Shown: positions 1,614 through 52,570 of the stretch, piece after piece
How the letters are laid out: the number at the start of each line of letters is the position of its first letter
Numbering within the stretch: the stretch's first letter is position 1
Assembly (NCBI GenBank): GCA_001790815.1
Contig: MGDU01000018.1
Span: forward strand, 788 to 64,787
Direction of reading: 5' to 3'
Length of the DNA stretch: 64,000 nucleotides
Source: Candidatus Uhrbacteria bacterium RIFCSPHIGHO2_02_FULL_46_47
Lineage (GTDB): Bacteria > Patescibacteriota > Patescibacteriia > GWA2-47-26
The notes under the pieces: model-generated
Seen by the model: only the letters and a program-made list of their open reading frames with translations
Told to the model about the DNA's origin: nothing
Databases searched by the model: none
Program-made: the position numbers and the translations under genes

Positions 1614-1672
1614 GGGTTATGAGTTACGGGTTATGAGTATAATACACTCTTAACTCATCAACTCTTAACTTA
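1614..1672. repeat. intergenic hairpin of tandem 'gttatgagt'-type units (gggttatgagttacgggttatgagtat ... actcttaactcatcaactcttaactta)
   Basis: Inverted arrangement read in sequence between rplT and rpmI. Confidence 0.7.
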
Positions 1673-2888: not shown

Positions 2889-3374
2889 TCAAGCTTTCCG
2901 TTTTAACTTCTCTCGGATTTCTCGATCAACCGCGCGTTTCTTAATTACCTCGCGTTTTTCGTATTTTTTGCGGCCGCGACCAAGCCCAAGTTCAACTTTC
3001 AAACGGCGTCCCCTAGTATACACGGATAACGGTACAAGTGTCAAGCGCTCGGCCTCAAGCTTACCCATAAGCTCTTTAATTTCCCGGGCGCGCAATAAAA
3101 GCTTGCGGCTACGGGTCGGATCATAACTGGGAAGCGCTCCGGCCTTTTTATACGGGCTGATATGCGCGTTTAACAGCCAGACCTCGCCGGCTTTGAGCGT
3201 GGCATAAGCGCCTTTAAGCGAAACATTACCGCCACGCACGGATTTCACCTCTTGTCCGGAAAGCACAATGCCGGCCTCATAGATTTTAAGGATATCATAA
3301 TCAAATTTTGCTCTAGAATTAGTGGCAAGGGTGGACATAGATAAGTGTAACGTGAAACGTGTAGCGTGTAACAC
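2889..3374 (-). CDS. smpB: SsrA-binding protein SmpB
   Basis: KFDYDIL..YEAGIVLSGQEVKSVR... signature. Confidence 0.95.
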   Translation of the reverse strand: MLHATRFTLHLSMSTLATNSRAKFDYDILKIYEAGIVLSGQEVKSVRGGNVSLKGAYATLKAGEVWLLNAHISPYKKAGALPSYDPTRSRKLLLRAREIKELMGKLEAERLTLVPLSVYTRGRRLKVELGLGRGRKKYEKREVIKKRAVDREIREKLKRKA

Positions 3375-4664: not shown

Positions 4665-6110
4665 CTAAAGCGTTTTTACCACGGCAAAACTTTGCGCGTG
4701 CGGGGCAGGGTGATCACTACTGACTATCACGATTTTACTTCCCTTTTTAAACCCACTGGCGTGCGCTTGAGCAATCAGTTTTTCTTCCAATTCTTTGCGT
4801 GTCGCAACTTCAGGAAGCAAAAATGGCCGTACTCCCCAGGAAAGATTTATTTGGCGCAAAACTCGCGTGAAAGGCGTTCCAATAATCAATTCCACCTCAC
4901 TGCGATAGCGGGAAAGCAAGCGCGCGGTGTGCCCGGTAACCGTGCCGGCCACAATGGCCTTGGCCTCTTCAGTGCGCGCCTGCATGGCGGCCAAAAGCGC
5001 CGTCTCTTCTTCGGGATTTCCATGATGGATTTCTCCGCCAATGGAAAGATCATCAAAGCGGGATTTTTCTGTTTTCTGAATAATGGCGGACATGATGCGC
5101 ACTGTCTCAATAGGATACGCGCCGGTTGCGCTTTCTCCGGAAAGCATGACCGCGTCTGTATGATCAATCACCGCGTTGGCCACATCTGAGGCCTCGGCGC
5201 GGGTTGGCCGCGGCGCGCGCTCCATAGAAGCCAGCATTTCAGTTGCCACAATAACCGGCACAGCCCTCCGGCGGCATTTTTCAATCAGTTCTTTTTGAAT
5301 AAGAGGCACTTCTTCAGGGCTGGTGGCAAGCGCCAAATCACCGCGGGCAATCATCACTCCGTCACAGACGCGCAAAATTTCTTCAAAATTATGTACGGCC
5401 TCGCGGGTTTCTATTTTGACGATAATTTTAATACCCGGAAGCTCAGCTTCCGTACGGAAGCTGAGCTTCCTCAACATCAATTTTCGTAATGCCAGCACAT
5501 CCTCAGCTTTTTTCACAAACGACAACGCCACAAAATCAATGTCTTGGGTTTTACTCCAGGCAATGTCTTTCCTGTCTTTTGATGTTATGGACGGCAACGG
5601 AAGCGAACCGCCGGCAATCGCGATGCCTTTGTGCGACTTAAGCTCTCCGCCAAGTATTACCCGCGCATGAATATCCTTTCCTGTAACACGTTCAACCACG
5701 CACTCAATTGTGCCGTCCGCAATTAGCAAGTGTGCGCCTTTTTTCACATATTTATGAAAATTAGGCACGGCAATAGGAATTTTGAAGTTATGAGTTATTG
5801 AGTTATGGGTTATGAGTATTGAGTTGCCTGTTGTAAAAATAATCTTTTGTCCTACTCTTAACTCATAACTCCTAACTCCTAACTCTCCAATCCTCGCCTT
5901 TGATCCTTGCAAATCAACTATTATTGCAATTGGCTTGCCGGTTTTTTTCTCTATGGCGCGCAAATTGGAAATAACGCGGCTATTCCAATTATAATCTCCA
6001 TGCGACATATTCAACCGCGCCACATTCATCCCTGCGCTTATCATTTTCTCAAGCGTGGCTGGTTTTTCTGATGCAGGACCTATTGTGCAGACAATTTTGG
6101 TTCGTTTCAT
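4665..6110 (-). CDS. pyk: pyruvate kinase carrying two in-frame palindromic-element insertions
   Basis: MKRTKIVCTIGPAS...NVARLNMSHG...; full-length PK. Confidence 0.95.
   Translation of the reverse strand: MKRTKIVCTIGPASEKPATLEKMISAGMNVARLNMSHGDYNWNSRVISNLRAIEKKTGKPIAIIVDLQGSKARIGELGVRSYELRVGQKIIFTTGNSILITHNSITHNFKIPIAVPNFHKYVKKGAHLLIADGTIECVVERVTGKDIHARVILGGELKSHKGIAIAGGSLPLPSITSKDRKDIAWSKTQDIDFVALSFVKKAEDVLALRKLMLRKLSFRTEAELPGIKIIVKIETREAVHNFEEILRVCDGVMIARGDLALATSPEEVPLIQKELIEKCRRRAVPVIVATEMLASMERAPRPTRAEASDVANAVIDHTDAVMLSGESATGAYPIETVRIMSAIIQKTEKSRFDDLSIGGEIHHGNPEEETALLAAMQARTEEAKAIVAGTVTGHTARLLSRYRSEVELIIGTPFTRVLRQINLSWGVRPFLLPEVATRKELEEKLIAQAHASGFKKGSKIVIVSSDHPAPHAQSFAVVKTL
5437..5470. 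repeat. perfect 15-bp inverted repeat ggaagctcagcttcc-gtac-ggaagctgagcttcc inside pyk (encodes …LSFRTEAELP…)
   Basis: Read directly; same family as two copies in der. Confidence 0.8.
5786..5888. repeat. hairpin of tandem 'gttatgagt' units inserted in-frame in the pyk B-domain (encodes …TGNSILITHNSITHNFKIP…)
   Basis: Arms agttatgagttattgagttatgggttatgagtattgagtt / aactcataactcctaactcctaactc. Confidence 0.75.
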
Positions 6111-6117
6111 AGATATG

Positions 6118-6200
6118 CAATGCGGATGACGCGGATTACCATGCGGATCTACAGATGTCGCGGATGAATTATCCGTAGATCAGCATGAATCCGTAGATCG
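6118..6200. repeat. intergenic hairpin of 'gcggatctac'/'gtagatccg' tandem units between pyk and htrA
   Basis: Read directly. Confidence 0.6.
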
Positions 6201-6212
6201 GCGTTGCGATTA

Positions 6213-7523
6213 TTATTTTAACTCCTCCAACACCACTTTTATTTCTTTTTCCTTTCCTTGGCTTAACACTTTGAGCACCAGCGTATCTCCAACTTTATGC
6301 TTTTGAATCTGTGATGCAAGCGATGTTTCCTCGGTAATCTTGACCTTGTCAATCTCTAAAATAATATCATTTTCACGCAGACTGGCTTTGTCCGCAGGAG
6401 AGCCGGGTACAACTGCAAGATCCGTTCGGCGATCTCCGCGCACAATAAGCGCGCCGTAGTCCACTGGCAATTTATTTTCCTGCGCAAGCTCTGGGTTGAT
6501 AATAATATAGCGCACGCCAAGCCATGGTCGTACAATCCTTCCTACGCTTCTTATACTCTCAATAGCCAGTTTGGCTGGATTTATAGGAATCGCAAAGCCA
6601 ACGTTCTGTCCTGCTGAAGATACGGCGGTATTAATGCCAACTACTTCCCCGCGCAAATTCACCAACGGCCCCCCAGAATTTCCCGGATTAATTGCCGCGT
6701 CGGTCTGTATCGCCTCCTCTATAACTTCAGAGCCAATGCCCGGACCACCGGCAGTAACTCTGCGCTTAATGCCAGAAACAACACCTTTGGTAATAGTGTT
6801 GGAAAATTCTGAAAGAGCGTTTCCGATTGCAATGACTGTTTCGCCGATTTGCAGCTTATCTGAATTGCCAAGCTTTGCTGTTGGAAGATTCTTTGCCTCA
6901 ATCTTAAGAAATCCTAAATCAATGAAGGGATCGCGAGCAAGAACCTTTGCCTCGTAGCGTTTGCCATCTGCGGTCACCACAGTATAGCTTGCCTGATCAT
7001 CAAATATAACGTGCTTGTTCGTAGCAATAAGACCGTCGGAGGCAATAATAAATCCTGTGCCTCCACCAACCTGCCTCCTTTGCGGCGGGCTTTGCGGTTG
7101 CTGCTGCTCCGGCATTTCAATTTCAAATCCAAACTCCCGAAAAAGATCCTCGGGGAAAATAGGGCCGGTTGAGCGCGCAGAGATTTCTTTGGAGATGACA
7201 ATGGAAACCACCGCGGGAGATACTCGCCGCACTACTTCTTCAGTGCTAAGCTCAACTATCGCATTTTTACCCTCACCCTCCCCTCTCCCTAAGGGAGAGG
7301 AATCTACTTTTACTCCCTCTCCCCGTGTGGGAGAGGGTTGGGGTAAGGGGAAGTTACGCGGCACGATCCATTGTAACGACGACGGCAATGACGTACGCAA
7401 ACTCTGTCCCAAATTCCCCGCGGCAATCTGGGTCACCACAATACCGCCGGCAAGTCCTGAAGCGCCACCTACCACAAGACTAATGGCAACTGAAATAATA
7501 ATGGTTTTTCTGAATTCGGACAT
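6213..7523 (-). CDS. HtrA/DegP-family serine protease (trypsin-like domain plus PDZ), membrane anchored, with an in-frame GEGEG-element insertion
   Basis: GNSGGPLVNLRGEVVGINTA; PDZ-like segment; N-terminal TM. Confidence 0.9.
   Translation of the reverse strand: MSEFRKTIIISVAISLVVGGASGLAGGIVVTQIAAGNLGQSLRTSLPSSLQWIVPRNFPLPQPSPTRGEGVKVDSSPLGRGEGEGKNAIVELSTEEVVRRVSPAVVSIVISKEISARSTGPIFPEDLFREFGFEIEMPEQQQPQSPPQRRQVGGGTGFIIASDGLIATNKHVIFDDQASYTVVTADGKRYEAKVLARDPFIDLGFLKIEAKNLPTAKLGNSDKLQIGETVIAIGNALSEFSNTITKGVVSGIKRRVTAGGPGIGSEVIEEAIQTDAAINPGNSGGPLVNLRGEVVGINTAVSSAGQNVGFAIPINPAKLAIESIRSVGRIVRPWLGVRYIIINPELAQENKLPVDYGALIVRGDRRTDLAVVPGSPADKASLRENDIILEIDKVKITEETSLASQIQKHKVGDTLVLKVLSQGKEKEIKVVLEELK
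7279..7362. repeat. GEGEG palindromic element copy (ccctcaccctcccctctccctaagggagagg … ccctctccccgtgtgggagagggttggggtaagggg) inside htrA
   Basis: Read directly; encodes …SPLGRGEGEGK…. Confidence 0.8.
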
Positions 7524-7952: not shown

Positions 7953-8588
7953 CTAAAAGTCAATCCCTTTTTGCGCCTTTATCCCTTTATCATACGGGTG
8001 TTTTACTTTTTGCATTTTTGTTACAAGGTCAGCCAGTTCGGCAAGCTCCGGGTATTCTTTATGTCCGGTCATGATTAAATATACCTCGGGCGGTTTAGCA
8101 CGGATCAACGCTTTGATATCTTCCACACTCAAAAGCGCGCTATCTACCGCTGATAAAATTTCATCTAAAATCACTACATCAAATTCCCATTGCGAAGCAC
8201 TGGGCGACCCAGTGCTTCGCAATATTTTCATCACAAATTCCAATCCTTCGCGCGCGGCTTCTTCATGCTCTTCAATTGGCTTTTTGTCTCCCATGATACG
8301 CACCCATCCTTTTCCAACGATGTGAAATTCCAATTTCCCCTCACCCTCCCCTCTCCCTAAGGGAGAGGGTGGCCGTAGGCCGGGTGAGGGCAACTGCTCC
8401 AACCACTTAAACATCTTTCCCTCCCCGGTTTCCCATCCCGCGTCTTTCCCGCCTTTCATAAATTGCATAAACAGCACGCGCTTGCCTTGCCCCAAGGCGC
8501 GCACCGCCAGTCCCACCGCGGCGGTGCTTTTCCCCTTCCCATATCCCCAATAAATCATCACCAAACCTTTTTGTATATTGATATTCAT
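7953..8588 (-). CDS. cobO: cob(I)yrinic acid a,c-diamide / ATP:corrinoid adenosyltransferase (BtuR/CobO family) with an in-frame GEGEG insertion
   Basis: YWGYGKGKSTAAVGLAVRALGQGKRV..QFMKG … GIKAQKGIDF matches BtuR end to end. Confidence 0.85.
   Translation of the reverse strand: MNINIQKGLVMIYWGYGKGKSTAAVGLAVRALGQGKRVLFMQFMKGGKDAGWETGEGKMFKWLEQLPSPGLRPPSPLGRGEGEGKLEFHIVGKGWVRIMGDKKPIEEHEEAAREGLEFVMKILRSTGSPSASQWEFDVVILDEILSAVDSALLSVEDIKALIRAKPPEVYLIMTGHKEYPELAELADLVTKMQKVKHPYDKGIKAQKGIDF
8337..8390. repeat. GEGEG palindromic element copy inside cobO
   Basis: cccctcaccctcccctctccctaagggagagggtggccgtaggccgggtgaggg. Confidence 0.8.
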
Positions 8589-10278: not shown

Positions 10279-10390
10279 ACTCCCTCACCCTACCCTCTCC
10301 CGCGGGGAGAGGAAAAATCAGGAAAATCCATTTATATACCCTCTACCTCTGGGAGAGGGTGCTCCGACCGCGGTCGGAGCGGGTGAGGGT
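10279..10390. repeat. composite GEGEG palindromic element (two modules, including 'gtgctccgaccgcggtcggagcgggtgaggg') flanking the DUF559 gene
   Basis: Read directly. Confidence 0.8.
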
Positions 10391-10392
10391 TA

Positions 10393-10737
10393 CTATTTAC
10401 GAAGTTCCGTAAGTATAGTCTCGAGCACAACTTCCGTTTCTCGTACCGCAGTATCTGCACCAAATCGGATGACTCTATACCCATGATTTTCTAAATATCG
10501 CGTTCGTGTAGCATCTTTTTTAACCCTGGCTCCATGTTGACTCCCATCGATCTCAACAATCATACACATTTCTTCACAACAAAAATCCGTAGTATATGGT
10601 CCTACTGGATGCTGGCGCCTAAACTTATAACCGCCTAGTTGTCTATTGCGAATAAAATACCATAACTTATTTTCAGCATCCGTCGCATTATGGCGAAGCG
10701 TGCGAGCGCGTTTGATGGTTTCCATATACCCCCTCAC
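10393..10737 (-). CDS. DUF559 endonuclease-domain protein (Vsr-like fold)
   Basis: …ENKLWYFIRNRQLGGYKFRRQHPVGPYTTDFCCEEMCMIVEIDGSQH… typical of DUF559. Confidence 0.8.
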   Translation of the reverse strand: MRGYMETIKRARTLRHNATDAENKLWYFIRNRQLGGYKFRRQHPVGPYTTDFCCEEMCMIVEIDGSQHGARVKKDATRTRYLENHGYRVIRFGADTAVRETEVVLETILTELRK

Positions 10738-10958: not shown

Positions 10959-10998
10959 ATATGGCAGAACTTTAAGCGGGGCGTAAAGCCCCGCATGT

Positions 10999-11032
10999 AC
11001 CCTCACCCTACCCTCTCCCATGGGGAGAGGAA
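10999..11032. repeat. GEGEG element copy between the zinc-ribbon gene and the end of nrdJ
   Basis: ccctcaccctaccctctcccatggggagagg. Confidence 0.75.
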
Positions 11033-11043
11033 TTGGAAAGGGT

Positions 11044-13551
11044 TTACCCGCATCTTGAAAACCCGCAGGCGCCGCATTTGGCGCAACCCTCCTGAAAGGC
11101 CAGCACGCCTCCGCAATCCGGGCAGGCCGGCGCAAAACCATTATCCAGCATGCTCTCGGTTCCTTTTTCCAGTGTAAGTTTTACCGGCTGGGCAAGTTTT
11201 TCATCCGAAACCCCCCATTGCAAATCCAATCTGCTTTGCGAGGATTTCATATGCTTTTCCAAAATCTGCGCAATGGCATCTGGCAACGACAGAATCATCT
11301 CGCCCTTGTACCAAATTGGCTGTGGATCGCGAATGCCTTTAATCTGGCGAATTACTGAATCAATATGCACGCCGCTTCTCAAGGAAAGCGAAATCATGCG
11401 GCAGATTGCCTCAAGATTGGCGGCAAAAAATCCACCGGCCTTGCCCATTTGCGAAAATACTTCAAAAGGACCTTGGTCATCTTCATTTATCGTAATATAA
11501 AGATTACCATAGGCGGTCTTGAGCTTATAGGTCGTACCGCGCAGGATTTCCGGACGCGGACGCGGCTCCAAAACATTTATCGTCTGCGCCGTGGCCGTAG
11601 CGCCATCTGTGGCCTGGCCACTATTGACCGTGGCCTGGCCACGATTAGTTTCTGTTTTCTGATCTTTTCTATTATTCAAATTCAAAACCTGCTCCTCGCG
11701 GCTTCCGTCACGATAAACTGTGCCTCCTTTGCATCCAAGCTCCCAAGCCAACATATAACCGGCCCGCACATCTTCACGCGTCGCGCTATTAGGAAAATTA
11801 ATTGTCTTTGAAATTGAATTGTCCGTATGTTTTTGAAACGCGGCTTGCATTAGAATATGATCTTGGGCCGAGATATCCATGGCGGTCACAAAAGTTTTCC
11901 GCAAATCCTCTGGCAATTCAGTGCGGTGCGCAATGGTGCCGGTTGCTGTCACATCCTCAACAAGCTCATCCGAGTATACTCCGCGCTCACGCAAAGCATT
12001 AACCAAATAAGGATTTACATAATTCAAACTATCCCCTCCCATGATATTTTCTTTTTTGTAAGCCAGAGCAAAGAATGGTTCAACACCTGAAGAACACTCA
12101 AAAAACATAGAGATGGAACCAGTGGGAGCAACGGTCGTGAGCGCGGCATTACGTTGAAGTCTATTTTGACCCTGCGGTCCAAAAATACTCTTTTCCCAAT
12201 TGGGAAACACACTTTTTGTACGCGCCAAATCCTCTGAAGTATCATGCGCCGCGTCATTAACAACCTTCATAACACGCTGTGCGGTTGTCAATCCTGCTTC
12301 GCTATTGTAGGGCACATTCATCTGATAAAGCAGGTCGGCAAAACCCATAATACCAAGACCCACCCGGCGATTGTCGCGAAAACGCGAATTGACTTTTTCA
12401 ACCGGAAAGTCAGAAATATCAATTACATTGTCCAGCATGCGCGTGGCAATCGCGGTCGTGTAGCGCAAATGTTCCTCGTCAATTTTTCCGTCTTTTATAA
12501 ATTTTGCAAGATTGATTGATCCTAAATTGCACACATCGCCATCATGTAAAAACTGTTCACCGCATGGATTTGTCGCTTCCAGCCGTCCCAAATGCGGCAC
12601 GGGATTAGTGCGGTTTGCCGCGTCCGGAAACAGCACGCCCGGCTCGCCGTTTTGCCAAGCTGATTCCACTATTTTATCCATAAGCTCGCGCGCGGTAAGC
12701 GTTACGTCCTCATGCCCCGCATAAGCGCCCCGACTATTTCTCTGAATACGTCGCGGTTTCATTTTCTTTCCTTTCCACTCGCACAGCCACGGCTCTTTGG
12801 AATCCGCGCGCACCTGCTTCATAAATTCGTCTGTCATTCCCACGGATACATTAAAATTCACAATCGTGCCTTCTTTGCGTTTGCAATCTATAAATTCCAA
12901 AATATCCGGATGATCAACGCGCATAACGCCCATATTCGCGCCGTGTCTATTTTGTTGCTTAATCACTCCAAAGGCGGTATTGTAGGCATGCAAAAATGAA
13001 ACTGGTCCGGAGGCTTGCCCGCGGGAAGCCACGGTCATGGTTCCGGCTGGACGAAGCAAATGCCAAGCAAATCCCAGACCTGATCCGGCTTGTTGTAAAA
13101 GCGAGGCATCGCGAAGCGTTGAAAAAATTCCATCCATGCTGTCGTCAAAATGAAGCACGATGCAATTAGCTACCACGCGCGTTGGACCGCCGGCATTGGT
13201 AATTGTGCGTCCAGCTGGCGTAAATTCAAATCGGCTAAGTACTCCGTAAAATTCATTTTCCCAAAATTTCACTTCTTCTTCTGTCGCGCCGTAAGCGCGT
13301 TCCACCTCCGCAAGCGCCCGGGCAATGCGAGAAAACATGCCTTTTGGCGTCTCCACCACTTCCCCCTGCTCATTGCGTACAAGATAACGTTTCTCAATAA
13401 CGCGAATGGCGTTATCGGTAAAACCCAGCTCGCGCCCATCGCGCCAGATCTCCTCTTTGGTTACTGGCTTGGCATTTTGCACTAAATTAACAATGTTTTG
13501 TTTGGAAACTGACGCGGAAACGGATGGCGACATAAAGTGAAAAAAATACAC
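11044..13551 (-). CDS. nrdJ: adenosylcobalamin-dependent (class II) ribonucleotide reductase, with a C-terminal Cys cluster and an in-frame tandem-repeat insertion (QATVNSGQATDGATATAQ)
   Basis: …ATNPCGEQ…, …TYKLKTAYGNLYITINEDDQGPFEVFSQMGKAGG…; 835 aa. Confidence 0.9.
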   Translation of the reverse strand: MYFFHFMSPSVSASVSKQNIVNLVQNAKPVTKEEIWRDGRELGFTDNAIRVIEKRYLVRNEQGEVVETPKGMFSRIARALAEVERAYGATEEEVKFWENEFYGVLSRFEFTPAGRTITNAGGPTRVVANCIVLHFDDSMDGIFSTLRDASLLQQAGSGLGFAWHLLRPAGTMTVASRGQASGPVSFLHAYNTAFGVIKQQNRHGANMGVMRVDHPDILEFIDCKRKEGTIVNFNVSVGMTDEFMKQVRADSKEPWLCEWKGKKMKPRRIQRNSRGAYAGHEDVTLTARELMDKIVESAWQNGEPGVLFPDAANRTNPVPHLGRLEATNPCGEQFLHDGDVCNLGSINLAKFIKDGKIDEEHLRYTTAIATRMLDNVIDISDFPVEKVNSRFRDNRRVGLGIMGFADLLYQMNVPYNSEAGLTTAQRVMKVVNDAAHDTSEDLARTKSVFPNWEKSIFGPQGQNRLQRNAALTTVAPTGSISMFFECSSGVEPFFALAYKKENIMGGDSLNYVNPYLVNALRERGVYSDELVEDVTATGTIAHRTELPEDLRKTFVTAMDISAQDHILMQAAFQKHTDNSISKTINFPNSATREDVRAGYMLAWELGCKGGTVYRDGSREEQVLNLNNRKDQKTETNRGQATVNSGQATDGATATAQTINVLEPRPRPEILRGTTYKLKTAYGNLYITINEDDQGPFEVFSQMGKAGGFFAANLEAICRMISLSLRSGVHIDSVIRQIKGIRDPQPIWYKGEMILSLPDAIAQILEKHMKSSQSRLDLQWGVSDEKLAQPVKLTLEKGTESMLDNGFAPACPDCGGVLAFQEGCAKCGACGFSRCG

Positions 13552-16931: not shown

Positions 16932-17438
16932 AAATTCACCTAATTCATCTAATTCCTAATTCACCTAATAAAAATTAAAAGGAAAAATTCATAAATTATT
17001 GTTGAATACCCTTCCTGTTTTCCGTTTCTTTCGCTCGTTTAATGATAGTCATAAATATAAGATTAAGCTCGTGTGCTTCTTTCCAGAGTCTTCTCGCTTC
17101 AGAGGTGAATTCCGGACATGCTTTGGATACCATGCGCAGAAAATGCTTTGATTCTTTTGCTTCTTTATTGGCAATAGCCATTTTGTGGATGAAATCTTTA
17201 TTGCTTTCTGCACAATCCGCCTCACAGTAGTTTGCACCTATTGCCGTCGTACATCCTATCAACTGGGGGATAATACGTTTTGTAATCTCATCTTTGGGCA
17301 ATTGCCTGCAAAATACAATCGCATCTTCACCGAATTTAGCCGTTCTTTCTTCTAAATCATAGTGCTTTTTACTTTCCTCCTTTGGCATTTGGTATTTTAT
17401 TAGGTGAATTAGGTGAATTGTAATTTAGGTGAATTTTC
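16926..17438. mobile_element. hairpin-flanked cassette carrying a four-helix-bundle (23S rRNA IVS-type) protein gene. Inverted repeats aattcacctaattcatctaattcctaattcacctaat / ttaggtgaattaggtgaattgtaatttaggtgaatt
   Basis: IRs read directly; inserted between ybeY and dgkA. Confidence 0.6.
16996..17388 (-). CDS. four-helix-bundle protein (TIGR02436, 23S rRNA intervening-sequence protein family)
   Basis: …ERTAKFGEDAIVFCRQLPK…IGANYCEADCAESNKDFIHKMAIANKEAKESKHFL…. Confidence 0.85.
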   Translation of the reverse strand: MPKEESKKHYDLEERTAKFGEDAIVFCRQLPKDEITKRIIPQLIGCTTAIGANYCEADCAESNKDFIHKMAIANKEAKESKHFLRMVSKACPEFTSEARRLWKEAHELNLIFMTIIKRAKETENRKGIQQ

Positions 17439-17871
17439 TAAGCACTTTCTCTTCTACCTTTTCCATCTGCTTCGCTTCCTTCTCCTCCTCATGATCATAT
17501 CCTAGCAGATGCAAAAATCCGTGCAAGACAAGACGCGCGATTTCGTAGCGCATAATCCAGCCGTATTTTTTTGCCTCGCGTCTGGCCTCGGGGAAAGAAA
17601 TAAATATATCACCCAGATCCCCCCTCACCCTGCCCTCTCCCCCAGGGAGAGGGGTTGGGGTGAGGGTAGAAAACGACAACACATTCGTCGTCTTGTCTTT
17701 TCCTCTATACTTTTTATTTATTGCGCGCATTTTTTTATCGCCAATAAAACTAATGGATATGGCTACATTGCGCGGACATTGTATTATTTTTACGGCTTGA
17801 TTGACAATCTGTTTCACCGCGCTTTCATATCGCCTTGCCGCTGATACTTCATATCTAACAATGATTTTCAT
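17425..17871 (-). CDS. ybeY: rRNA maturation RNase YbeY with an in-frame GEGEG insertion
   Basis: HGFLHLLGYDHEEE metal motif. Confidence 0.9.
   Translation of the reverse strand: MKIIVRYEVSAARRYESAVKQIVNQAVKIIQCPRNVAISISFIGDKKMRAINKKYRGKDKTTNVLSFSTLTPTPLPGGEGRVRGDLGDIFISFPEARREAKKYGWIMRYEIARLVLHGFLHLLGYDHEEEKEAKQMEKVEEKVLRKFT
17619..17668. repeat. GEGEG element copy inside ybeY (encodes …PTPLPGGEGRVRG…)
   Basis: cccccctcaccctgccctctcccccagggagaggggttggggtgaggg. Confidence 0.8.
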
Positions 17872-17883
17872 GATTCATGATTC

Positions 17884-18798
17884 CTAATTCATAATTCTCA
17901 CACTATTGAGCATCATTTCAAATGTTCTCTTATACGCGCCCTCCACTGCTGTTCCATATAAAACTACGTAGATAAAGCCTTGTCCCGCAAACACACCTCT
18001 TAGCGTCGCGCCCTCTTTTGCGAAAATACCCGGCAGTCCGGCTTTATTGGTTGTCCAATCGGAAATTTCCGCGCTTTGAAAATTGGAAGCGGCATAAGCG
18101 CGAGCAGTGGTATTTTCCGGATTGTCAATAACGCTTACCAAAATAGATTCGCCCGTGGCGCTTTGAAAGATAACTTCACGGGAAGCTATATCGCCTGCGA
18201 TTGTCCAGGGTTTTGGATACAGAATTTCATAACGGTACGTTGAACTTATAAATCGCACAGCAAACCCAGCGGCTTCTAGACGCTCCGGCGCAATGCCTGA
18301 CGGATTATACAGGTTAAACACTTCATGGCCGTCCAAAAAACCATCGTTGTCAGTATCCGGAACTGAGGATTGGCTTCCGTACAAATTTTCTTCTAAATCC
18401 GAAAGGCCATCGCTGTCAGTATCTTGCGTAGCAGTTGGTTGCGCGGGCAGGGTTGGCGGTGCAACAGGGGGCAAAGCCGGAGGAAGTTCAGGAATTTCAG
18501 GAGCGGGCGGTGGCACTTCAACCGCAGGAGGCGTGGGAGTTACTTCTGGGGCAGGAGTAGGCACAGCGGGCGCTTCCCGCAGGCCGCGCGTAAAATACCA
18601 GACCGATCCGCCAACCACTGCCACAAATAAAATACTAACCGCGCTTATAAAAAGCACTTTCGGCGATATTTTGCGCGGCGTTTTTGTTGGTTTTCCCGGA
18701 ATCAAACCAATCTCAGGCGCCTCTTTGTGGGGCACCTTCTTTGGCACTGCCCCGCCATAGTAGGCATCGGGAATAGTGTGGATGATAGTATCCGGCAT
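17884..18798 (-). CDS. membrane-anchored, Pro-rich secreted protein with thrombospondin type-3-like Ca-binding repeats (DSDGLSD…DTDNDGFLDGHE)
   Basis: N-terminal TM; D-x-D-x-D-G repeats. Confidence 0.65.
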   Translation of the reverse strand: MPDTIIHTIPDAYYGGAVPKKVPHKEAPEIGLIPGKPTKTPRKISPKVLFISAVSILFVAVVGGSVWYFTRGLREAPAVPTPAPEVTPTPPAVEVPPPAPEIPELPPALPPVAPPTLPAQPTATQDTDSDGLSDLEENLYGSQSSVPDTDNDGFLDGHEVFNLYNPSGIAPERLEAAGFAVRFISSTYRYEILYPKPWTIAGDIASREVIFQSATGESILVSVIDNPENTTARAYAASNFQSAEISDWTTNKAGLPGIFAKEGATLRGVFAGQGFIYVVLYGTAVEGAYKRTFEMMLNSVRIMN

Positions 18799-18890: not shown

Positions 18891-19529
18891 TTACTGTCCC
18901 GCAGGGACAGTAAAGAGCTTCCCTTCTCCTTTCGGATTATATCCATTTCTTACTTCTTGCCCGTCAAGAAAATTATCTCCATCAGTATCTGCGTCTAAAG
19001 GATCCGTCTGATAGGTATTTACCTCTTCCCCATCCAAAAGACCATCATTGTCTGAATCCGGATTTTGCGGGTCAGTTCCGCGTGAAGTTTCATCTTCATC
19101 TGAAAGCCCGTCATTATCCGAATCTGCCGGCGGAGCAGGCGGTACTTCTTCCACAATAGTTTCTTCAGTTGGCGCAGTAGTAGCTTCGGGCAAAGTAGGA
19201 ATTTCCGGAGGAACTGGCTGTGATACTTCTGCTTGAGGCGGCGCTGGCGGCGCAGCACTGCGGCGCGCAAAACGAAGCACTGCCACTGCTATTCCGGCAA
19301 CAACAAGTATGCCAAGCACAATACCGCCAATTAAAATTGTTTTGCGCGAAGCAATAAGCGGCTGTTTTACTTCTGCCGGTGTTCCCTCACCCTCCCCGCG
19401 CCCTTTGGGAGAGGGTGCTCCGCCCGCAGGAGGAGCGGGTGAGGGAGCTGGCTCCACTTTTTCAAAAATATCTTCTGGCGCAGGGCCTGTGGGTAAATTA
19501 GGAGGCGTTTGTTCTTCAAACATTGGCAT
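18891..19529 (-). CDS. membrane-anchored protein with TSP3-like repeats and an in-frame GEGEG insertion
   Basis: DSDNDGLSDEDE…DSDNDGLLDGEE…DTDGDNFLDGQE. Confidence 0.65.
   Translation of the reverse strand: MPMFEEQTPPNLPTGPAPEDIFEKVEPAPSPAPPAGGAPSPKGRGEGEGTPAEVKQPLIASRKTILIGGIVLGILVVAGIAVAVLRFARRSAAPPAPPQAEVSQPVPPEIPTLPEATTAPTEETIVEEVPPAPPADSDNDGLSDEDETSRGTDPQNPDSDNDGLLDGEEVNTYQTDPLDADTDGDNFLDGQEVRNGYNPKGEGKLFTVPAGQ
19403..19465. repeat. GEGEG element copy inside the TSP3-repeat gene
   Basis: ccctcaccctccccgcgccctttgggagagggtgctccgcccgcaggaggagcgggtgaggg. Confidence 0.8.
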
Positions 19530-19697
19530 AAAGGTTATGAGTTATGAGTTATTGGTTATTAGCCATGTGTATAACAAAGTATACCATATTTATTGATATT
19601 GACACAATGTAAAATCGGCGCTATGGTGTAAAAGTGGTTCGGAAACCAAATCCCCCACCAGCCTAATGGCTTTCCTCTCCCTTAGGGAGGGGGTAGG

Positions 19698-21071
19698 GTG
19701 AGGGTCAACAAGGAGGAAGAGATGAAGACGTTCCTTTTCACGCTAGTGCTGGCATTCACGCTTGGCCTGACCATGTTCTCCTGCGGAAGCGGGGGCGGCA
19801 ACGGTAACGAAGGCGAGTCCGAAGCAGAAGCCGAAGCGGAAGGCGAAGAGGCCGAGGCTGAGTCTGAGTCCGAATCCGAGTGCGAACCTGAATCCTGCGA
19901 CGACGGCGTGGACTGCACAGATGATACCCTTGACGAAAAGGTGTGTGCCTGCGCATTCCAACCTCTCCACGGCCGTTGCGATCTCGGCATGATCTGCGAT
20001 CCTGCGGAAGGCGGCTGTGTCAGCCCGCCTCCCTGCGCCGTGGCGAGCGACTGTCCGGATCGCGATGGCGCTTGTTTGCAGGAATCCTGCAACACAGCCA
20101 CGGCGACCTGCGCATACTTGCCGCTGGACAGTGACGAGGACGGCCATTCGCCCCAAATCTGCACCTCGGTTGGCGGCGACGACTGCTACGATGATGCCAG
20201 CGAGATCTACCCCGGCGCTCCGGAGTTCTGCGACGGGCTGGACAACGACTGCGATGGAGAGGTGGACAGCTTCAGCCGTTCCTGCGGCTCCGACACCGGC
20301 GAGTGCGTTGCCGGGGAGCAGACCTGCGCAGACGGCGAGTGGTCGCAGTGCGATGATGTCGGCCCGGCCACCGAAGTCTGTGATGGGTTGGACAACGACT
20401 GCGATGGAGAAGTGGATGAGTTTCTCATCAACGATTGCAACGAATGCGGGCCGCTTCCGGAAGAAGTCTGCGACGGGGAGGACAATGATTGCGATGGAAC
20501 AACTGATGAAGGCCTGTTGAACGCGTGTGGGCAGTGCGGGCCTCTTCCGGAAGAAGTCTGCGACGGGGAGGACAATGACTGTGATGGAGAAGTAGACAAT
20601 GGTCTTCCAGAAATTGCTTGCGATGGGGAAGACGGCGATGAGTGTGAGGAAGGGTTTTGGCAGTGCGAAGATGGTGTGAGTTTCTGTGATGACCAAACCG
20701 GAAATACAATCGAATGGTGCAACAATAGTGTAGACAACGATTGTGATGGAGAAGTAGACGAGGGATGCGGTGATGCGTGTATCATGCCGCCATCCGCGTG
20801 TCCTTATGGCGGTTGGTGCGTCCCGGAGCCCGGGTGCCCCTACTGCGTCTGGACCTGCGCTACAGTTTCTGACTGTCCCGGAGGCGCCGCCTGCTATACT
20901 TGCGATTACTTTGGTGACGGGCTTTACCTCTGCAATCCCAAGTGGGACCCGGAGGCGAGTTGTCCCGCCGGTGAGATCGGGTACCCGCTTGGCGCGAGTT
21001 CGGAGTGCGATGGCGGCTTTGATCTATCCTTTTCAAGTGCACCTCTATGCACCATTGAGTGCACTCCGTAA
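19698..21071 (+). CDS. secreted/lipoprotein-like Cys-rich protein with MopE-type 'putative metal-binding motif' repeats (CDGxDNDCDGxxDE); GC-rich with a strong SD
   Basis: Signal peptide; at least 6 CDG.DNDCDG repeats; SD aaggagga. Confidence 0.75.
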   Translation: MRVNKEEEMKTFLFTLVLAFTLGLTMFSCGSGGGNGNEGESEAEAEAEGEEAEAESESESECEPESCDDGVDCTDDTLDEKVCACAFQPLHGRCDLGMICDPAEGGCVSPPPCAVASDCPDRDGACLQESCNTATATCAYLPLDSDEDGHSPQICTSVGGDDCYDDASEIYPGAPEFCDGLDNDCDGEVDSFSRSCGSDTGECVAGEQTCADGEWSQCDDVGPATEVCDGLDNDCDGEVDEFLINDCNECGPLPEEVCDGEDNDCDGTTDEGLLNACGQCGPLPEEVCDGEDNDCDGEVDNGLPEIACDGEDGDECEEGFWQCEDGVSFCDDQTGNTIEWCNNSVDNDCDGEVDEGCGDACIMPPSACPYGGWCVPEPGCPYCVWTCATVSDCPGGAACYTCDYFGDGLYLCNPKWDPEASCPAGEIGYPLGASSECDGGFDLSFSSAPLCTIECTP

Positions 21072-35603: not shown

Positions 35604-35605
35604 TG

Positions 35606-35685
35606 CTATATTGCTATATTGCTATATTGTTTCCGTACCTTCCATATAACAATATAACAGTATAACAATTTAACAATATCTCTAG
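35606..35685. repeat. intergenic hairpin of tandem 'gctatatt' units (gctatattgctatattgctatattg … caatataacagtataacaatttaacaatat)
   Basis: Read directly. Confidence 0.65.
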
Positions 35686-40431: not shown

Positions 40432-40465
40432 ACTCGATTCTCATTCATAATTCATAATTCTTAAT

Positions 40466-41348: not shown

Positions 41349-42797
41349 ATGGATCAACTCTCATCCAATTTTTTAAAAGAATCCTCACCAGAACCGAAAG
41401 AAAATCGGCGTGTAATTTTTCTTCTCCTTGGAGCACTGATTTTTCTTATCGTCAGTGCCTCAATTGGAGGAATGCTTTTTGCGTCCTCAGCGGGTTTTAC
41501 TCCTGCAAAGATTTTTGCGAAATTGCGTTCACTTACTCTTTCAAAAGAGAAAATGCTCAAAGGTGAAAAAGACGATCGGGTAAATATCCTCCTTCTGGGC
41601 ATGGGAGGAGTTGGTCATGATGGAGCACTCCTGACTGATACAATGATCTTTACAAGCCTGCGGCCATCTGATGGCACCGTCGCCATGCTTTCTATTCCAC
41701 GGGATCTGCAGGTTGAAATTCCCAGTTATGGATATCGCAGGATAAACAGCGTTAACTCCTATGCGGAACTTGAAAATAGTGGAAGCGGCGGGATGGCAAC
41801 GGCAAATCTTGTATCTAATATCTTAACTCAACCAATTCATTATTATTTGCGCGTTGATTTTGAAGCATTCAAAGAAATTGTTGATACCATTGATGGAATC
41901 GAGGTGAATGTAGGGCGCGCGTTCTATGATCCATTCTATCCTGACGAAAACTTCGGTTATGAACCCGTCTCCTTTGAAGCCGGGCCTCAAACTATGAACG
42001 GTAAACGCGCGCTCCAATTTGTACGCAGCCGCCATGGCACAAACGGAGAGGGCAACGATTTTGCACGCGCGCGACGTCAACAGCAAGTCCTTTTTGCGCT
42101 AAAAGAACGACTGCTCTCTTTTGACGTATTGCTTCGTCCAAAACGAATTCAGAGCATTCTTGAGTCTTTGCAAGATCATATCCAAACCGATATCGCGTTT
42201 TGGGAAGGAATGCGGCTTGCAAAACTTCTGCGCCATATTGATGGAAGCAAAATTGTAAGCCGCGTTCTTGACGCATCTGATGAAGGAGTACTTCAAGAGC
42301 GAAACTACAACGGCGCGTTTGTATTGGAGCCAAAAGGCGGAAATTGGGATGAAATTCGCGCGATTGCCGCGAATGTATTTTCACCCGCAACCCCCTCACC
42401 CCAACCCTCTCCCCAAGGGGGCGAGGGGGTGACGCTAAAATCCCCTCTCCCTAAGGGAGAGGGTGCTCCGACCGCGGTCGGAGCAGGTGAGGGAACACAA
42501 AAAGCATCCGCGCCTATTGTGGAAATCCAAAACGGCACTTTTACGCTTGGGCTTGCCTCAAAAATCGCGACTATTCTTGAGGCGCAAGGATTTAATCCGG
42601 CTAGCATCGGCAATGCGACACTGCGCGATGTGGATGAGACCATTGTCTATGACCTAACTGGCGGACAAAAGAAAGAAGAATTTGCAAAACTGCGGGAAAT
42701 TCTCAAAGCGCGCGATGGCGAAGGCGAGCCACTTCATCTTTTAAGTCAGGGTAAACTGGATTTCCTCGTCATCTTAGGGGCAAATTCAGTTAAGTGA
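41349..42797 (+). CDS. LytR-CpsA-Psr (LCP) family cell-wall glycopolymer transferase with an in-frame GEGEG insertion
   Basis: …NILLLGMGG.GHDGALLTDTMIFTSL…MLSIPRDL…. Confidence 0.85.
   Translation: MDQLSSNFLKESSPEPKENRRVIFLLLGALIFLIVSASIGGMLFASSAGFTPAKIFAKLRSLTLSKEKMLKGEKDDRVNILLLGMGGVGHDGALLTDTMIFTSLRPSDGTVAMLSIPRDLQVEIPSYGYRRINSVNSYAELENSGSGGMATANLVSNILTQPIHYYLRVDFEAFKEIVDTIDGIEVNVGRAFYDPFYPDENFGYEPVSFEAGPQTMNGKRALQFVRSRHGTNGEGNDFARARRQQQVLFALKERLLSFDVLLRPKRIQSILESLQDHIQTDIAFWEGMRLAKLLRHIDGSKIVSRVLDASDEGVLQERNYNGAFVLEPKGGNWDEIRAIAANVFSPATPSPQPSPQGGEGVTLKSPLPKGEGAPTAVGAGEGTQKASAPIVEIQNGTFTLGLASKIATILEAQGFNPASIGNATLRDVDETIVYDLTGGQKKEEFAKLREILKARDGEGEPLHLLSQGKLDFLVILGANSVK
42390..42492. repeat. 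composite GEGEG element inside the LCP gene (encodes …PSPQPSPQGGEGVTLKSPLPKGEGAPTAVGAGEG…)
   Basis: Read directly. Confidence 0.8.
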
Positions 42798-42892
42798 GTG
42801 ATGGGTTATTGAGTTATGAGGCAAGAATTAAGAGTTGATGGATTAAGGGTTAATTGCAATACTCATAACACATAACTTAATAACATAATAAC
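42797..42892. repeat. intergenic 'gttatgagt'-family hairpin between LCP and der
   Basis: gggttattgagttatgag … actcataacacataacttaataac. Confidence 0.6.
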
Positions 42893-49783: not shown

Positions 49784-51969
49784 TGAAGCTCATCATTGTT
49801 GAATCCCCTACTAAAGCCAAGACGCTCTCCAAATTCCTCGGGAGTGATTTTGTTGTTAAATCCTCCTTTGGCCATATTCGTGATTTGCCTAAAAGCAATA
49901 AAGACGCGGTGGATATTGCCGGCGGTTTTGTGCCGCGCTATCAGATCTTGAAAGAGAAACAAAAAGTCATTGCGGAATTACGCGAAGCCGCGGAAAAGGC
50001 GGACGAAGTCATTTTGTCCCCTGATCCTGATCGCGAAGGTGAAGCAATTGCCTGGCATTTGGCGCAGGTCATTGGCCTTAAAAACCCCAAGCGCAGTGTT
50101 TTCCATGAAATAACGCAGCGTGCTGTGGCGGAGGCGCTGGCGCATCCGCGCGAGATTGATAATCAACTGGTGCGCGCTCAAGAAGCCCGCCGGGTTTTGG
50201 ATCGCCTGTTTGGCTATGATCTTTCCGGTTTAATTTGGAAAAAAGTTCGCTATGGCTTGTCAGCTGGACGCGTGCAATCCCCAGCACTGCGCATACTTAT
50301 GGAGCGCGAGCGCGAAATTCGAGCGTTTGTGCCGGAAAAATTCTGGGTCATAAGCGCGAACCTTAAAACAAAGTCTGGCGGAGCCTTTACCGCCACTTGC
50401 GTAGAAGAACCAAAAACCGAACCAGAAGCCAAAAAGATATTAACGGCGGCGCAAACCGGAACATGGTTTGTCAAAGATATTGAAGAATCAGAGCAGTCCC
50501 GCGCGGCGCGTCCACCCTTTACCACCTCTACTTTACAACAAACTGCCAGCACCCGTTTGGGATTTTCTCCATCACGCACCATGCGTATAGCGCAAAAACT
50601 GTACGAAGCCGGACACATTACCTACATGCGCACCGACAGCGTACATCTGGCGCAGGAAGCACAAGCGAATTTTATCGCGGTGATTAAAAAAGAGTTTGGT
50701 GAAAATTACGCCGAGCCGCGTGAGTACAAAACCAAAAGCAAATCCGCGCAAGAAGCGCACGAGGCAATTCGACCAACTGACGCAGCTGTGCGCGCCTGCG
50801 GCGCGAATGAAGAAGAGAAAAAATTATACGTGCTTATTCGTGCGCGGGCGCTGGCCAGTCAAATGTCTGACGCGCGCATTGCCCGCACCAAAATCATTGC
50901 TAACATCTCCAACAGTTCCCTTCCTGATTTTGCCGTAAATGGTTCGCGCGTGGTGTTTGAAGGATGGCTTAAGGCTGACCCGTCTGCCCGCGGTGAAGAT
51001 GTTGAACTTCCCAAAACCGCAAAGAACGATCCGCTCACACTTATGGAGGCGGCCTTTGAAGGCAAGGAAACCCAACCGCCCGGACGCTATAGTGAAGCCG
51101 GATTGGTTAAGGAGCTGGAGAAGCGTGATATTGGACGGCCGTCTACCTATGCCTCCATTATCAAAACCCTGGAGGACCGCGGCTATGTGGAAAAACAAAA
51201 TCGCACACTCATGCCCACTGCGACCGGAGACGTGGTCAGCTCATTTATTGAAGAAAATTTTGGCGACTACATTTCCGATACTTTTACCGCGGAAATGGAA
51301 AATGAGCTGGACGAAATTGCCGAGGGTAAACGCACCTATGAAGGGACGCTCACGGAATTTTACGAGCCCTTTCACAAAGCTGTCAAAGGGAAAAGCGGAG
51401 TAGCCAAAATTACCGAAATGGGAGCGGCGCCAAAAGAATTTCCCTGCCCGATTTGCGGCAAGGCCATGGTGTATAAACTTTCGCGCACCGGCCGTTTTAT
51501 GAGTTGCGTTGATTTTCCAAAATGCCTTGGCGCGCGCAAAGAAGACGGCAGTGTTATCGCGCCACCCAAAGAAATTGGAGAAACCTGCCCGGAATGTAGC
51601 CGCCTGCCTGCCGGTAGGCAGGGCCAATTGATTGAACGTGAAGGACGGTTCGGCCGATTTATCGCGTGCAGTAATTATCCAAAATGCAAATTTATTAAAA
51701 AAGGTGAGGCGGAGGAAGCCAAAGGAAAAACCGGCGTGCAATGCCCGATATGCAAGAAGGGAGAGATGGTTGAGCGGCGCGGCAAATTCGGCGTTTTTTA
51801 TTCCTGCTCCAATTATCCAGATTGCAAAAATGCTATCAAAGCGCGGCCGACCGGACGACTTTGTAATTTGTGCGGCGCCCTATATATGCTCGGTACCAAA
51901 ACAATTCCGGAGCGCTGTTCAAACAAAGACTGCCCAAATCACAATCCGCATAAATTGAAAGCGAATTAG
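49783..51969 (+). CDS. topA: DNA topoisomerase I with C-terminal zinc ribbons
   Basis: TOPRIM MKLIIVESPTKAK…, multiple CxxC ribbons. Confidence 0.97.
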   Translation: MKLIIVESPTKAKTLSKFLGSDFVVKSSFGHIRDLPKSNKDAVDIAGGFVPRYQILKEKQKVIAELREAAEKADEVILSPDPDREGEAIAWHLAQVIGLKNPKRSVFHEITQRAVAEALAHPREIDNQLVRAQEARRVLDRLFGYDLSGLIWKKVRYGLSAGRVQSPALRILMEREREIRAFVPEKFWVISANLKTKSGGAFTATCVEEPKTEPEAKKILTAAQTGTWFVKDIEESEQSRAARPPFTTSTLQQTASTRLGFSPSRTMRIAQKLYEAGHITYMRTDSVHLAQEAQANFIAVIKKEFGENYAEPREYKTKSKSAQEAHEAIRPTDAAVRACGANEEEKKLYVLIRARALASQMSDARIARTKIIANISNSSLPDFAVNGSRVVFEGWLKADPSARGEDVELPKTAKNDPLTLMEAAFEGKETQPPGRYSEAGLVKELEKRDIGRPSTYASIIKTLEDRGYVEKQNRTLMPTATGDVVSSFIEENFGDYISDTFTAEMENELDEIAEGKRTYEGTLTEFYEPFHKAVKGKSGVAKITEMGAAPKEFPCPICGKAMVYKLSRTGRFMSCVDFPKCLGARKEDGSVIAPPKEIGETCPECSRLPAGRQGQLIEREGRFGRFIACSNYPKCKFIKKGEAEEAKGKTGVQCPICKKGEMVERRGKFGVFYSCSNYPDCKNAIKARPTGRLCNLCGALYMLGTKTIPERCSNKDCPNHNPHKLKAN

Positions 51970-52391
51970 CGGATTAGAGATTAGCGAATTAGCTTATGGC
52001 TCACACATTTTATGAACTTAACATTTGGAAAAAGGGGCATGAACTTCTTATAGAAGTATACAAAGTAACGGCCAAATATCCACCTACTGAAAAGTACGGC
52101 CTTAGTAATGATACTAGGCGTTCTGGCAACTCTATCATTGCAAATATCGCGGAAGCGCACGGTAGATATTTTTTTGCCGATAAAGTGCGCGTCCTTTATA
52201 TTGCCCGCGGGGAAGTGGAAGAAATACGGAGTCATTTGAGAGTTGCGGAAAGTCTTAGTTATATTTCAAATGAAAAATTCCAGTGGTTTGATCAAGAATA
52301 TGAGGGTCTCGCAAAAGGCATAAGTAGCTACATTGCTAGCCTGGAACAACAATCCCAAAATCAACACGACTAATTCGCTCAATTCGCTAAT
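51961..52391. mobile_element. second hairpin-flanked cassette carrying a four-helix-bundle protein gene (IRs gcgaattagcggattagagattagcgaattagc / taattcgctcaattcgctaattagc); the left IR overlaps the last codons of topA
   Basis: Read directly. Confidence 0.6.
51996..52373 (+). CDS. four-helix-bundle protein (23S rRNA IVS protein family)
   Basis: …GHELLIEVYKVTAKYPPTEKYGLSNDTRRSGNSIIANIAEAHGRYFFADKVRVLYIARGEVEE…. Confidence 0.85.
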   Translation: MAHTFYELNIWKKGHELLIEVYKVTAKYPPTEKYGLSNDTRRSGNSIIANIAEAHGRYFFADKVRVLYIARGEVEEIRSHLRVAESLSYISNEKFQWFDQEYEGLAKGISSYIASLEQQSQNQHD

Positions 52392-52570
52392 TAGCTAATC
52401 CTCTCTTAAATACAAAGACAGCCGGACAGGCTAACCCCTAAAACCAAAGTAATAAGAGGGCGCGCTGCCGGCCGTCACCGATTAGTATATCCACACGCGT
52501 TCCCCTTGACAATACCCGTGTCAAGCGATAACATAAGACTGTAATAAGAGGAATCCCAAAAACCAGGAAA

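Follow-up and report, generated by a model that had tools for sequence, protein, structure and literature searches.

How does a long inverted repeat come to be translated within the coding sequence of an essential enzyme? We consider this question for pyk, the pyruvate kinase gene of Candidatus Uhrbacteria bacterium RIFCSPHIGHO2_02_FULL_46_47, an uncultured bacterium from groundwater, using a stretch of 64,000 nucleotides (nt) from contig MGDU01000018.1 (GenBank assembly GCA_001790815.1, positions 788 to 64,787), which is referred to below as the window. A sequence-only reading of this DNA had drawn attention to an inverted repeat at 5786..5888, and had taken it to be a single type of hairpin element that was inserted in frame into pyk and also used between genes. 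Our analysis indicates that the pyk hairpin is probably a composite, made up of two short-period tandem arrays of different age, rather than one inserted element. The pyk features, numbered from the first position of the window, are as follows.

4665..6110, minus strand: pyk, pyruvate kinase, 481 amino acids, intact (PF00224 and PF02887, PDB 2e28, AlphaFold2 model)
5851..5888, minus strand: 5' arm in mRNA sense, in-place array, GAGTTAG GAGTTAG GAGTTAT GAGTTAA GAGTAGG, codons G75-G87 (tandem repeat analysis, ortholog comparison)
5826..5849, minus strand: hairpin loop, native codons Q88-G95 (QKIIFTTG), B-domain strand (alignment, model)
5784..5825, minus strand: 3' arm in mRNA sense, inserted array, alternating 8-/7-nt units of the AACTCAAT/AACTCAT type with a 15-nt period (tandem repeat analysis, alignment)

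Anatomy of the pyk hairpin

The inverted repeat is present in pyk at 5786..5888, and the translation given for it earlier (...ELGVRSYELRVGQKIIFTTGNSILITHNSITHNFKIP...) is correct. The tandem make-up of both arms was also borne out by Tandem Repeats Finder (TRF), which returned 7-nt arrays of 5.6 copies at 5786-5825 and of 5.3 copies at 5850-5885. Folded as RNA, the hairpin has a predicted energy of -35.3 kcal/mol (z -5.3), and none of 200 dinucleotide shuffles folded as well (0/200); folded as DNA, it has a z of -4.8 relative to shuffles. The 5' arm encodes residues E76-G87 (ELGVRSYELRVG) and the 3' arm residues N96-F109 (NSILITHNSITHNF). Between them, the loop consists of 24 nt of native codons, the motif GxxVVFTTG being conserved in 24/24 aligned orthologs. 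In the AlphaFold2 model the loop forms a strand at residues 89-93. The 5'-arm residues are modeled as structured B-domain strands with a predicted local distance difference test (pLDDT) score of 84-90 (strand at 81-84), and the 3'-arm residues are modeled with low confidence as coil, in a surface loop of the B domain (pLDDT of about 58). Insertion in frame, which had been proposed for the hairpin as a whole, holds for just one part of it, the 3' arm: the loop consists of native sequence, and no residues are added by the 5' arm. A target-site duplication was sought at the arm ends of the pyk repeat and of the other loci described below, and none was seen. Neither a transposase nor a reverse transcriptase was found among the 20 open reading frames (ORFs) of the 64-kb window that were scanned.

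The gene that carries this hairpin is an intact pyk, and named homologs assign the organism to Candidatus Uhrbacteria, a member of the candidate phyla radiation (CPR). Its product matches the pyruvate kinase barrel domain PF00224 (E 6e-104) and the pyruvate kinase C-terminal domain PF02887, has 2e28 as its closest solved structure (E 5e-92), and retains all of the columns that are invariant over the 24 aligned orthologs. The AlphaFold2 model, built from a shallow alignment, has a mean pLDDT of 88.2. Comparison of the window with four contigs from four other assemblies revealed 0 mismatches over 3.1-7.4 kb, both arms included, and the pyk repeat locus is therefore no assembly artefact, the same DNA being found in five assemblies. 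Twelve contigs encode an identical Pyk protein. The repeat creates no stop codon or frameshift in these 12 contigs or in any ortholog examined, and the intact reading frame together with the confident model rules out a pseudogene. We also ruled out a phase-variable contingency locus based on the imperfect units, the fixed reading frame, and the identity of the protein across the 12 contigs.

The 5' array across Pyk orthologs

DNA from 13 close Pyk orthologs was compared at the 5'-arm site, the protein alignment covering 24 orthologs. A search of metagenome contigs yielded just three close relatives; the matches listed from a search of genome contigs with the Pyk alignment were all distant pyruvate kinases (35-44% identity), of no use for comparison of the site. 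Five tandem 7-nt units, always 35 nt in total and at identical codons, are present in 11 of the 13 close orthologs, and the unit is species-specific. The unit is GAGTTAG in the window, the other 5'-array units being TAATTAG, GAATTAG, GAAATTC, GAATTAA, GAATTAT, AAGTTAC, AGTTCAC, AAGTTGA, and AAATGTA. In two species (units AGTTCAC and GAAATTC) four copies of the unit are perfect. The array involves zero change in length relative to orthologs, the same 12 codons being non-repetitive (NLPKEGVKLEAG) in the more distant ortholog L116. The period-7 match is 0.82 for the window array and 0.68-0.89 across all arrays, compared to 0.25 +/- 0.12 for the rest of pyk. In the orthologs that lack the array, the corresponding values are 0.32 (L116) and 0.43 (P0010, best period-7 window). 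Units are more alike within an array than between species at the same positions, with mean identities of 0.77 and 0.60, respectively.

These 7-nt units are read in all three frames, and the perfect repetition therefore does not result from selection at the protein level; a protein-level repeat was ruled out by the perfect nucleotide copies across the three frames. Where a unit terminates in TAG or TAA, the single copy that would give an in-frame stop has TAT or TTG in its place. All of the 5' units share a TT core, which results in an alternation of hydrophobic residues (L, V, Y, L, V). This alternation matches the native strand pattern, which plausibly explains how the array is tolerated. Taken together, the comparison points to a process at the DNA level that would homogenize the 5' array, with selection removing stops and holding the length.

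Formation of a hairpin does not appear to be a requirement for the array. Seven orthologs (P0004, P0006, P0012, P0008, P0009, P0025, and P0016) contain the heptamer array but lack a 3' arm altogether. In the nine other array-bearing orthologs whose fetched DNA was searched, no complementary partner for the 5' array came to light, and the 5' array is therefore independent of a hairpin. A repeat process acting on the DNA appears able to occupy codons of an essential enzyme over long evolutionary times, the array being reshaped in each species with selection only trimming stops and keeping the length. As such, the pyk array offers an unusual view of how mutation and selection oppose each other in very small genomes.

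The 3' arm and the origin of the hairpin

The 3' arm is extra sequence, with 14 residues in the window at a position where P0004 and P0006 have 4, corresponding to an insertion of about 10 residues. It is common only to the window and to the orthologs P0002 (locus L005) and P0003 (locus L130), where it is clearly homologous (...AACTCAATAACTCATAACCCAATAACT...); its length in P0002 is 11 residues. The loop of the protein into which it falls is a hot spot for insertions, other orthologs having 0 to about 37 extra residues derived from unrelated elements (for example P0009 and P0011). Were the array made up of 7-nt ATAACTC units alone, TAA would fall in frame. The 7+8 = 15-nt period that is found here, and that TRF also reports, reads as an NSITH pentapeptide without a stop.

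In P0002 the two pyk arrays lack complementarity, and shuffled sequences fold as well as the region itself does (z -0.5). Given the z of -5.3 for the window, the hairpin is thus restricted to the lineage of the window. The 3' arm belongs to a unit family that is dominant in both genomes, represented by GTTATGA in the window and by AGTTATTA / AATAACTC in the genome of P0002. In that genome, AGTTATTA / AATAACTC units form hairpins at ftsA-ftsZ, at htrA-pyk, and after smpB, and also form arrays that flank a four-helix-bundle gene.

The unit family and other arrays in the window

Period 7 is enriched in the window, with 9 arrays compared to 0.0 in shuffles. The GTTATGAGTTATGA family to which the pyk units belong has 23 matches compared to an expectation of 4.68 +/- 2.05 (maximum 10). 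Members of the family are found at three further loci.

1614..1672, minus strand: intergenic hairpin of the pyk unit family in the rpmI-rplT spacer, its end lying 7 nt short of the rplT start (z -3.9)
19534..19560, no strand assigned: lone direct array, GTTATGA x about 4, located 4 nt upstream of the start of gene 18891-19529 (z +0.15)
42797..42892, plus strand: intergenic hairpin of the pyk unit family between an LCP-family gene and der, with a long loop (z -2.6)

The gene labels rplT, rpmI, LCP, and der that had been assigned in the sequence-only reading are correct, and the hairpins described there between rpmI and rplT and between LCP and der are real. The third, at 19533..19563, does not form a hairpin, having no complementary arm, and is simply a direct array. 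The proposal of one element type serving both between genes and within coding sequence survives insofar as a single unit family occurs in both settings; the pyk feature was not inserted whole, as one hairpin element. Copies at the other loci have in common only the unit, not the loops or flanks, and thus do not look like copies of one master element.

Related Uhrbacteria contigs are likewise rich in 7-9-nt arrays, most of them opposed pairs in intergenic spacers. The rpmI-rplT spacer contains the period-7 hairpin in the window (1614-1672) and a TAAATCAAG hairpin of period 9 in L005 (13731-13814, z -6.0). The htrA-pyk spacer contains three different hairpins in three genomes (window 6111-6212; L005 9912-9995; L007 9914-9989). 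Position and architecture are conserved in both spacers, the units (periods 7, 8, and 9 nt) being unrelated. The array hairpins are not canonical intrinsic terminators according to a terminator scan, as the stems are A+T-rich and there is no T tail. A search of the window with Rfam at the gathering threshold identified only a tmRNA and three tRNAs, so that no hairpin matches a described RNA family.

Several other repeats were observed in the window. A strong 8-nt-array hairpin at 35602-35679 (ATTGCTAT / ATATAACA, z -7.1) abuts the start of an ORF of 4675 residues (21576-35603), within which lies a 30-nt x 1.9 repeat (24874-24931). Arrays of TTCATAA / ATTCATA span gene boundaries at 17867-17897 and 40438-40474, where they seem to provide both the stop codon of the preceding gene and the start codon of the following one. 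A perfect 39-nt x 2 tandem duplication is found just upstream of dprA (48347-48425).

Arrays around genes for four-helix-bundle proteins

Two genes of the window that encode four-helix-bundle proteins of the TIGR02436 / PF05635 family (23S rRNA intervening-sequence protein) are each enclosed by arrays in inverted orientation.

16933..17435, minus strand: gene 16996-17388 within inverted 9-nt arrays (AATTCACCT / AGGTGAATT), four-helix bundle (flank duplex z -7.2)
51960..52399, plus strand: gene 51996-52373 within inverted 8-nt arrays (AGCGAATT / CTAATTCG), four-helix bundle (flank duplex z -4.15)

When pairing of the upstream with the downstream flank was scored for 52 genes of the window, these two TIGR02436 genes ranked first and third. 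Both TIGR02436 copies of L005 are bracketed too (182-634 and 12446-12896). The cassette between ybeY and dagK is found in both the window (16933-17435) and L005, and a comparison of the two reveals a C/G to G/C swap made in both arms.

A tblastn search of plasmids placed the TIGR02436 family almost only in Cyanobacteria, and 11/12 of the regions fetched had flanking short-period arrays (L117-L127). These include brackets of (GGAGTCA)n / (TGACTCC)n in Nostoc and of (AAGGGAA)n / (TTCCCTT)n in Geminocystis. The copy on an Azospirillum plasmid, with arrays of GAGGACG / GTCTTCT, lies inside a 23S rRNA gene and so is a true intervening sequence. Bracketed TIGR02436 genes come to a total of 15/16 over three phyla (4/4 in Uhrbacteria and 11/12 on plasmids). 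The finding brings together, in a picture that lends itself to testing, the heptamer arrays, the repeat-built intergenic hairpins, and an intervening-sequence protein family of unknown function, each of them a puzzle. An ad hoc hidden Markov model run on all of the fetched loci recovered only the four seed genes and no additional TIGR02436 genes. Our literature search did not uncover a general link between S23p proteins and heptamer arrays, Coxiella being the only matching case, and S23p is not mentioned in the Geobacter supplements.

On two of the cyanobacterial plasmids (L121 and L123), four-helix-bundle genes and their arrays occupy positions within CRISPR-cas operons, one between cas6 and cas4 and the other between cas10 and cmr3, where they look like inserted cassettes.

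Other repeats that are translated in frame

The hairpin is not the only repeat translated within pyk. A second in-frame insertion at 5437-5470 is a perfect 17+17-nt palindrome (GGAAGCTCAGCTTCCGT / ACGGAAGCTGAGCTTCC; z -7.3) with the product KLSFRTEAEL, and the pLDDT falls below 50 at residues 216-221. Orthologs have other elements at this site. The pyk gene of P0003 contains two copies of a related AAGCTTAGCTTT palindrome (L130, about 2620-2670 and 3090-3140).

Repeats are also translated in other housekeeping genes. In peptidyl-tRNA hydrolase (Pth), an ACTACNN heptamer array at 47256-47285 is translated as LLTTYYKLHT with no change in length relative to solved structures, making this a second in-place coding array. 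Histidyl-tRNA synthetase (HisRS) has an insertion of ~40 residues relative to the E. coli enzyme (39379-39510). Within this insertion are found an array of GACAGAA / AACAGAA, with a unit similar to the heptamer GACAGAT of the Coxiella intervening sequence, and further downstream its complement (UUCUGUCUUCC). The YbeY gene of L007, a related Uhrbacterium, contains a full in-frame hairpin of heptamer arrays, AGAAACT / AGTTTCC (1269-1337, z -4.0). A G+C-rich palindrome is found in the same loop of the window YbeY (17620-17666), and so this loop represents a shared hot spot for insertion. This palindrome belongs to a G+C-rich family (CCCTCTCCC...GGGAGAGGG) translated as segments of the PLxxGEGxxxG type in an HtrA-like protease, a CobA-like protein, YbeY, and others, with copies in the window as follows.

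7270-7342, 8336-8358, 10292-10360, 10998-11019, 17620-17666, 19683-19705, 42381-42464, 44398-44462, 47604-47688: G+C-rich palindromic family

G+C-rich inverted repeats of the GGGAGAGGG family also lie near a small ORF at 10393-10737, suggesting another small gene bracketed by palindromic repeats. This ORF ranked second of the 52 genes in flank pairing (z -4.4), and its N-terminus resembles that of a gene of L005 with a DUF559 endonuclease domain.

Based on the in-frame cases in pyk, HisRS, and YbeY, small palindromes in permissive loops of housekeeping proteins are common in this clade. Our literature searches turned up no account of in-frame repeat arrays or palindromes in CPR proteins. Such translated repeats inflate the apparent novelty of candidate-phyla proteins, and both alignment and structure modeling can be misled by them.

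A model for the pyk hairpin and the alternatives to it

A composite origin for the hairpin could be accounted for by the following sequence of events. An older array of five 7-nt units would have overwritten a stretch of 12 native codons where the B domain begins, leaving the length unchanged, in an ancestor of this subclade of Uhrbacteria. This 5' array would persist because the TT-core unit, when read in three frames, gives a native-like alternation of hydrophobicity, with selection purging stops. At a later point, an array of the common GTTAT(N)AG family would have been added 24 nt downstream in a permissive surface loop, the 7+8 = 15-nt period of this second array serving to keep the frame and avoid TAA. 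With the two arrays being complementary in this lineage, the mRNA or single-stranded DNA could form an imperfect stem of ~35 bp around the native codons. Slipped or transiently misaligned replication, together with copying between the arms, is the most likely means by which arrays arise and stay homogeneous. The stems that enclose intervening-sequence-protein genes are built in the same way, and because RNase III cuts a stem of this type in Coxiella, the intergenic copies most likely act as sites for the processing or stability of double-stranded RNA. The pyk copy is most likely a tolerated by-product, the hairpin of which may lower the stability of the pyk mRNA or slow its translation.

Several observations weigh against this model. 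The five assemblies are identical and exhibit no variation in copy number, such that we infer slippage from the pattern of the repeats only. Pure local slippage also fails to account for the occurrence of one unit family in two genomes with only 70% identity between their Pyk proteins. Selection for the structure, rather than accident, could lie behind the very low folding energy. The ortholog tree is star-like, so that a single ancient origin followed by concerted evolution is inseparable from repeated origins at a predisposed site. Cores of AGTT and of AATT are both found among the relatives, so that the unit may have changed in either direction; the 3' arm could thus be an inverted copy of a GAGTTAT-type 5' array, as opposed to the 5' units having converged upon it.

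How the arrays came to form a hairpin can be explained in other ways. The structure might be an adaptive one in the pyk mRNA, an RNase III site or a translational pause that was selected in this lineage. The strength of the fold (z -5.3) is consistent with this, as is the presence, in all five of the 5' units, of the G needed for pairing with the C of the 3' units, in contrast to relatives of the GAATTAG type; moreover, Coxiella stems of this architecture are substrates for RNase III, and orthologous spacers retain repeat-built hairpins despite turnover of their sequence. However, neither of the two orthologs with a 3' array conserves the structure (z -0.5 in P0002), and most orthologs lack a partner array, so we regard an adaptive hairpin as unlikely, though with a real chance of being correct. 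We give a good deal less credence to a single mobile palindromic element, similar to a Rickettsia palindromic element or to a miniature inverted-repeat transposable element (MITE), that would have inserted in frame into pyk and also between genes. The occurrence of the unit family at four loci fits such an element, and whole small palindromes do insert in frame, as seen at 5437-5470 of pyk, in the pyk gene of P0003, and in YbeY of L007. What makes it very improbable for the hairpin is that the loop is native and conserved, that the 5' arm adds no residues, and that seven orthologs have the 5' array but not the 3' arm; in addition, the copies have no common loop or flank and no target duplication, and the ORFs scanned include no transposase. 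Chance, selection for a repeat in the protein, an assembly artefact, or a pseudogene can be virtually dismissed as the source of the pyk arrays. The native Pyk sequence does contain a weak quasi-repeat of 7 residues (xLxxxG / xLxxG), but the nucleotide repeats are perfect and are read through three frames, arrays of period 7 are absent from shuffles, and the DNA is the same in five assemblies with an intact ORF and a confident model.

A different type of explanation invokes a dedicated, templated system, tied to the four-helix-bundle (Avd-like) proteins, that makes or spreads arrays and overwrites DNA in place, the 5' array of pyk being its footprint. Replacement in place with no change in length, at both pyk and Pth, would be expected of such a system, and arrays are tightly linked to TIGR02436 genes over three phyla. 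One of the window TIGR02436 copies matches the Avd model of diversity-generating retroelements weakly (E 6e-8, below the cutoff), and the unit family is common to different genera. On the other hand, no reverse transcriptase is present among the ORFs scanned, the arrays at both TIGR02436 genes of the window are of other unit families than those of pyk, and the literature provided no biochemical precedent that we could find, all of which lead us to consider this origin of the pyk array improbable. A broader form of the idea is that the 7-9-nt arrays and the TIGR02436 / S23p (Avd-like) proteins constitute one system across CPR, Cyanobacteria, and Proteobacteria, in which the protein recognizes or helps propagate the arrays, and in which the arrays can overwrite coding DNA in place. 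This we consider speculative and doubtful. If it were true, ribosomal intervening sequences would be only the best-known manifestation of a cross-phylum array system, with the pyk array as a footprint. It would also provide a function for the protein family and for the cyanobacterial heptamer repeats, both of which have been unexplained for ~30 years.

Comparison with known systems

Intervening sequences of 23S rRNA that contain an S23p ORF are found in Coxiella burnetii, Leptospira, and some Alphaproteobacteria. Like the pyk hairpin, rRNA intervening sequences form a long imperfect stem from terminal inverted repeats of tandem heptamers. The pyk stem differs in being located in a protein-coding mRNA rather than at the tip of a 23S or 16S rRNA helix, there being no rRNA in the window. 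It also differs in that its loop consists of native codons with no S23p / TIGR02436 ORF, such ORFs being found instead in the cassettes at 16933-17435 and 51960-52399, and in that its stem is built from two arrays of different age. In Coxiella burnetii, GACAGAT is repeated in tandem x2-3 directly upstream of the S23p ORF, the number varying among strains, and RNase III cuts the stem of the intervening sequence at the first repeat (PMC4990558). Among the stems compared here, cleavage by RNase III has been demonstrated only for that of Coxiella.

The Rickettsia palindromic elements resemble the pyk hairpin in being palindromic repeats that are translated in frame at surface-exposed, permissive sites of housekeeping proteins, leaving the host protein intact. 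Copies of these elements conform to a consensus of 100-150 nt and are inserted as a unit. In contrast, the pyk hairpin shares only the 7-nt unit with the other copies, its loop is native, and one of its arms replaces codons without adding any. It differs from mobile elements of the MITE or repetitive extragenic palindromic (REP) type in having no target-site duplication, and in the absence of a transposase from the ORFs scanned.

Seven nt is the commonest period of long repeats in prokaryotes, for which polymerase slippage has been proposed (PMC4679880). The GGACCGG family of Geobacter metallireducens consists of heptamer arrays located within and between genes, some of them as opposed pairs (PMC2700814). 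This family, the short tandemly repeated repetitive (STRR) sequences of Cyanobacteria, and the TAACTGA arrays of Beggiatoaceae are similar to the pyk arrays in being composed of head-to-tail 7-nt units, with 3-6 copies and many loci per genome. The pyk arrays are heptanucleotide arrays by the same standard, having at least three head-to-tail 7-nt units at a level above chance. What sets the pyk array apart is that an entire clade has it at the same codons of an essential enzyme, the unit differing by species while the length is fixed and stops are avoided; nothing comparable is described in the papers cited here. The feature as a whole is a variation on features already known, namely intervening-sequence stems, in-frame palindromes, and heptanucleotide arrays. 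Most interesting are two of its aspects: within an essential enzyme, an array of conserved position but species-specific unit, and, across phyla, the arrays that bracket genes for intervening-sequence proteins.

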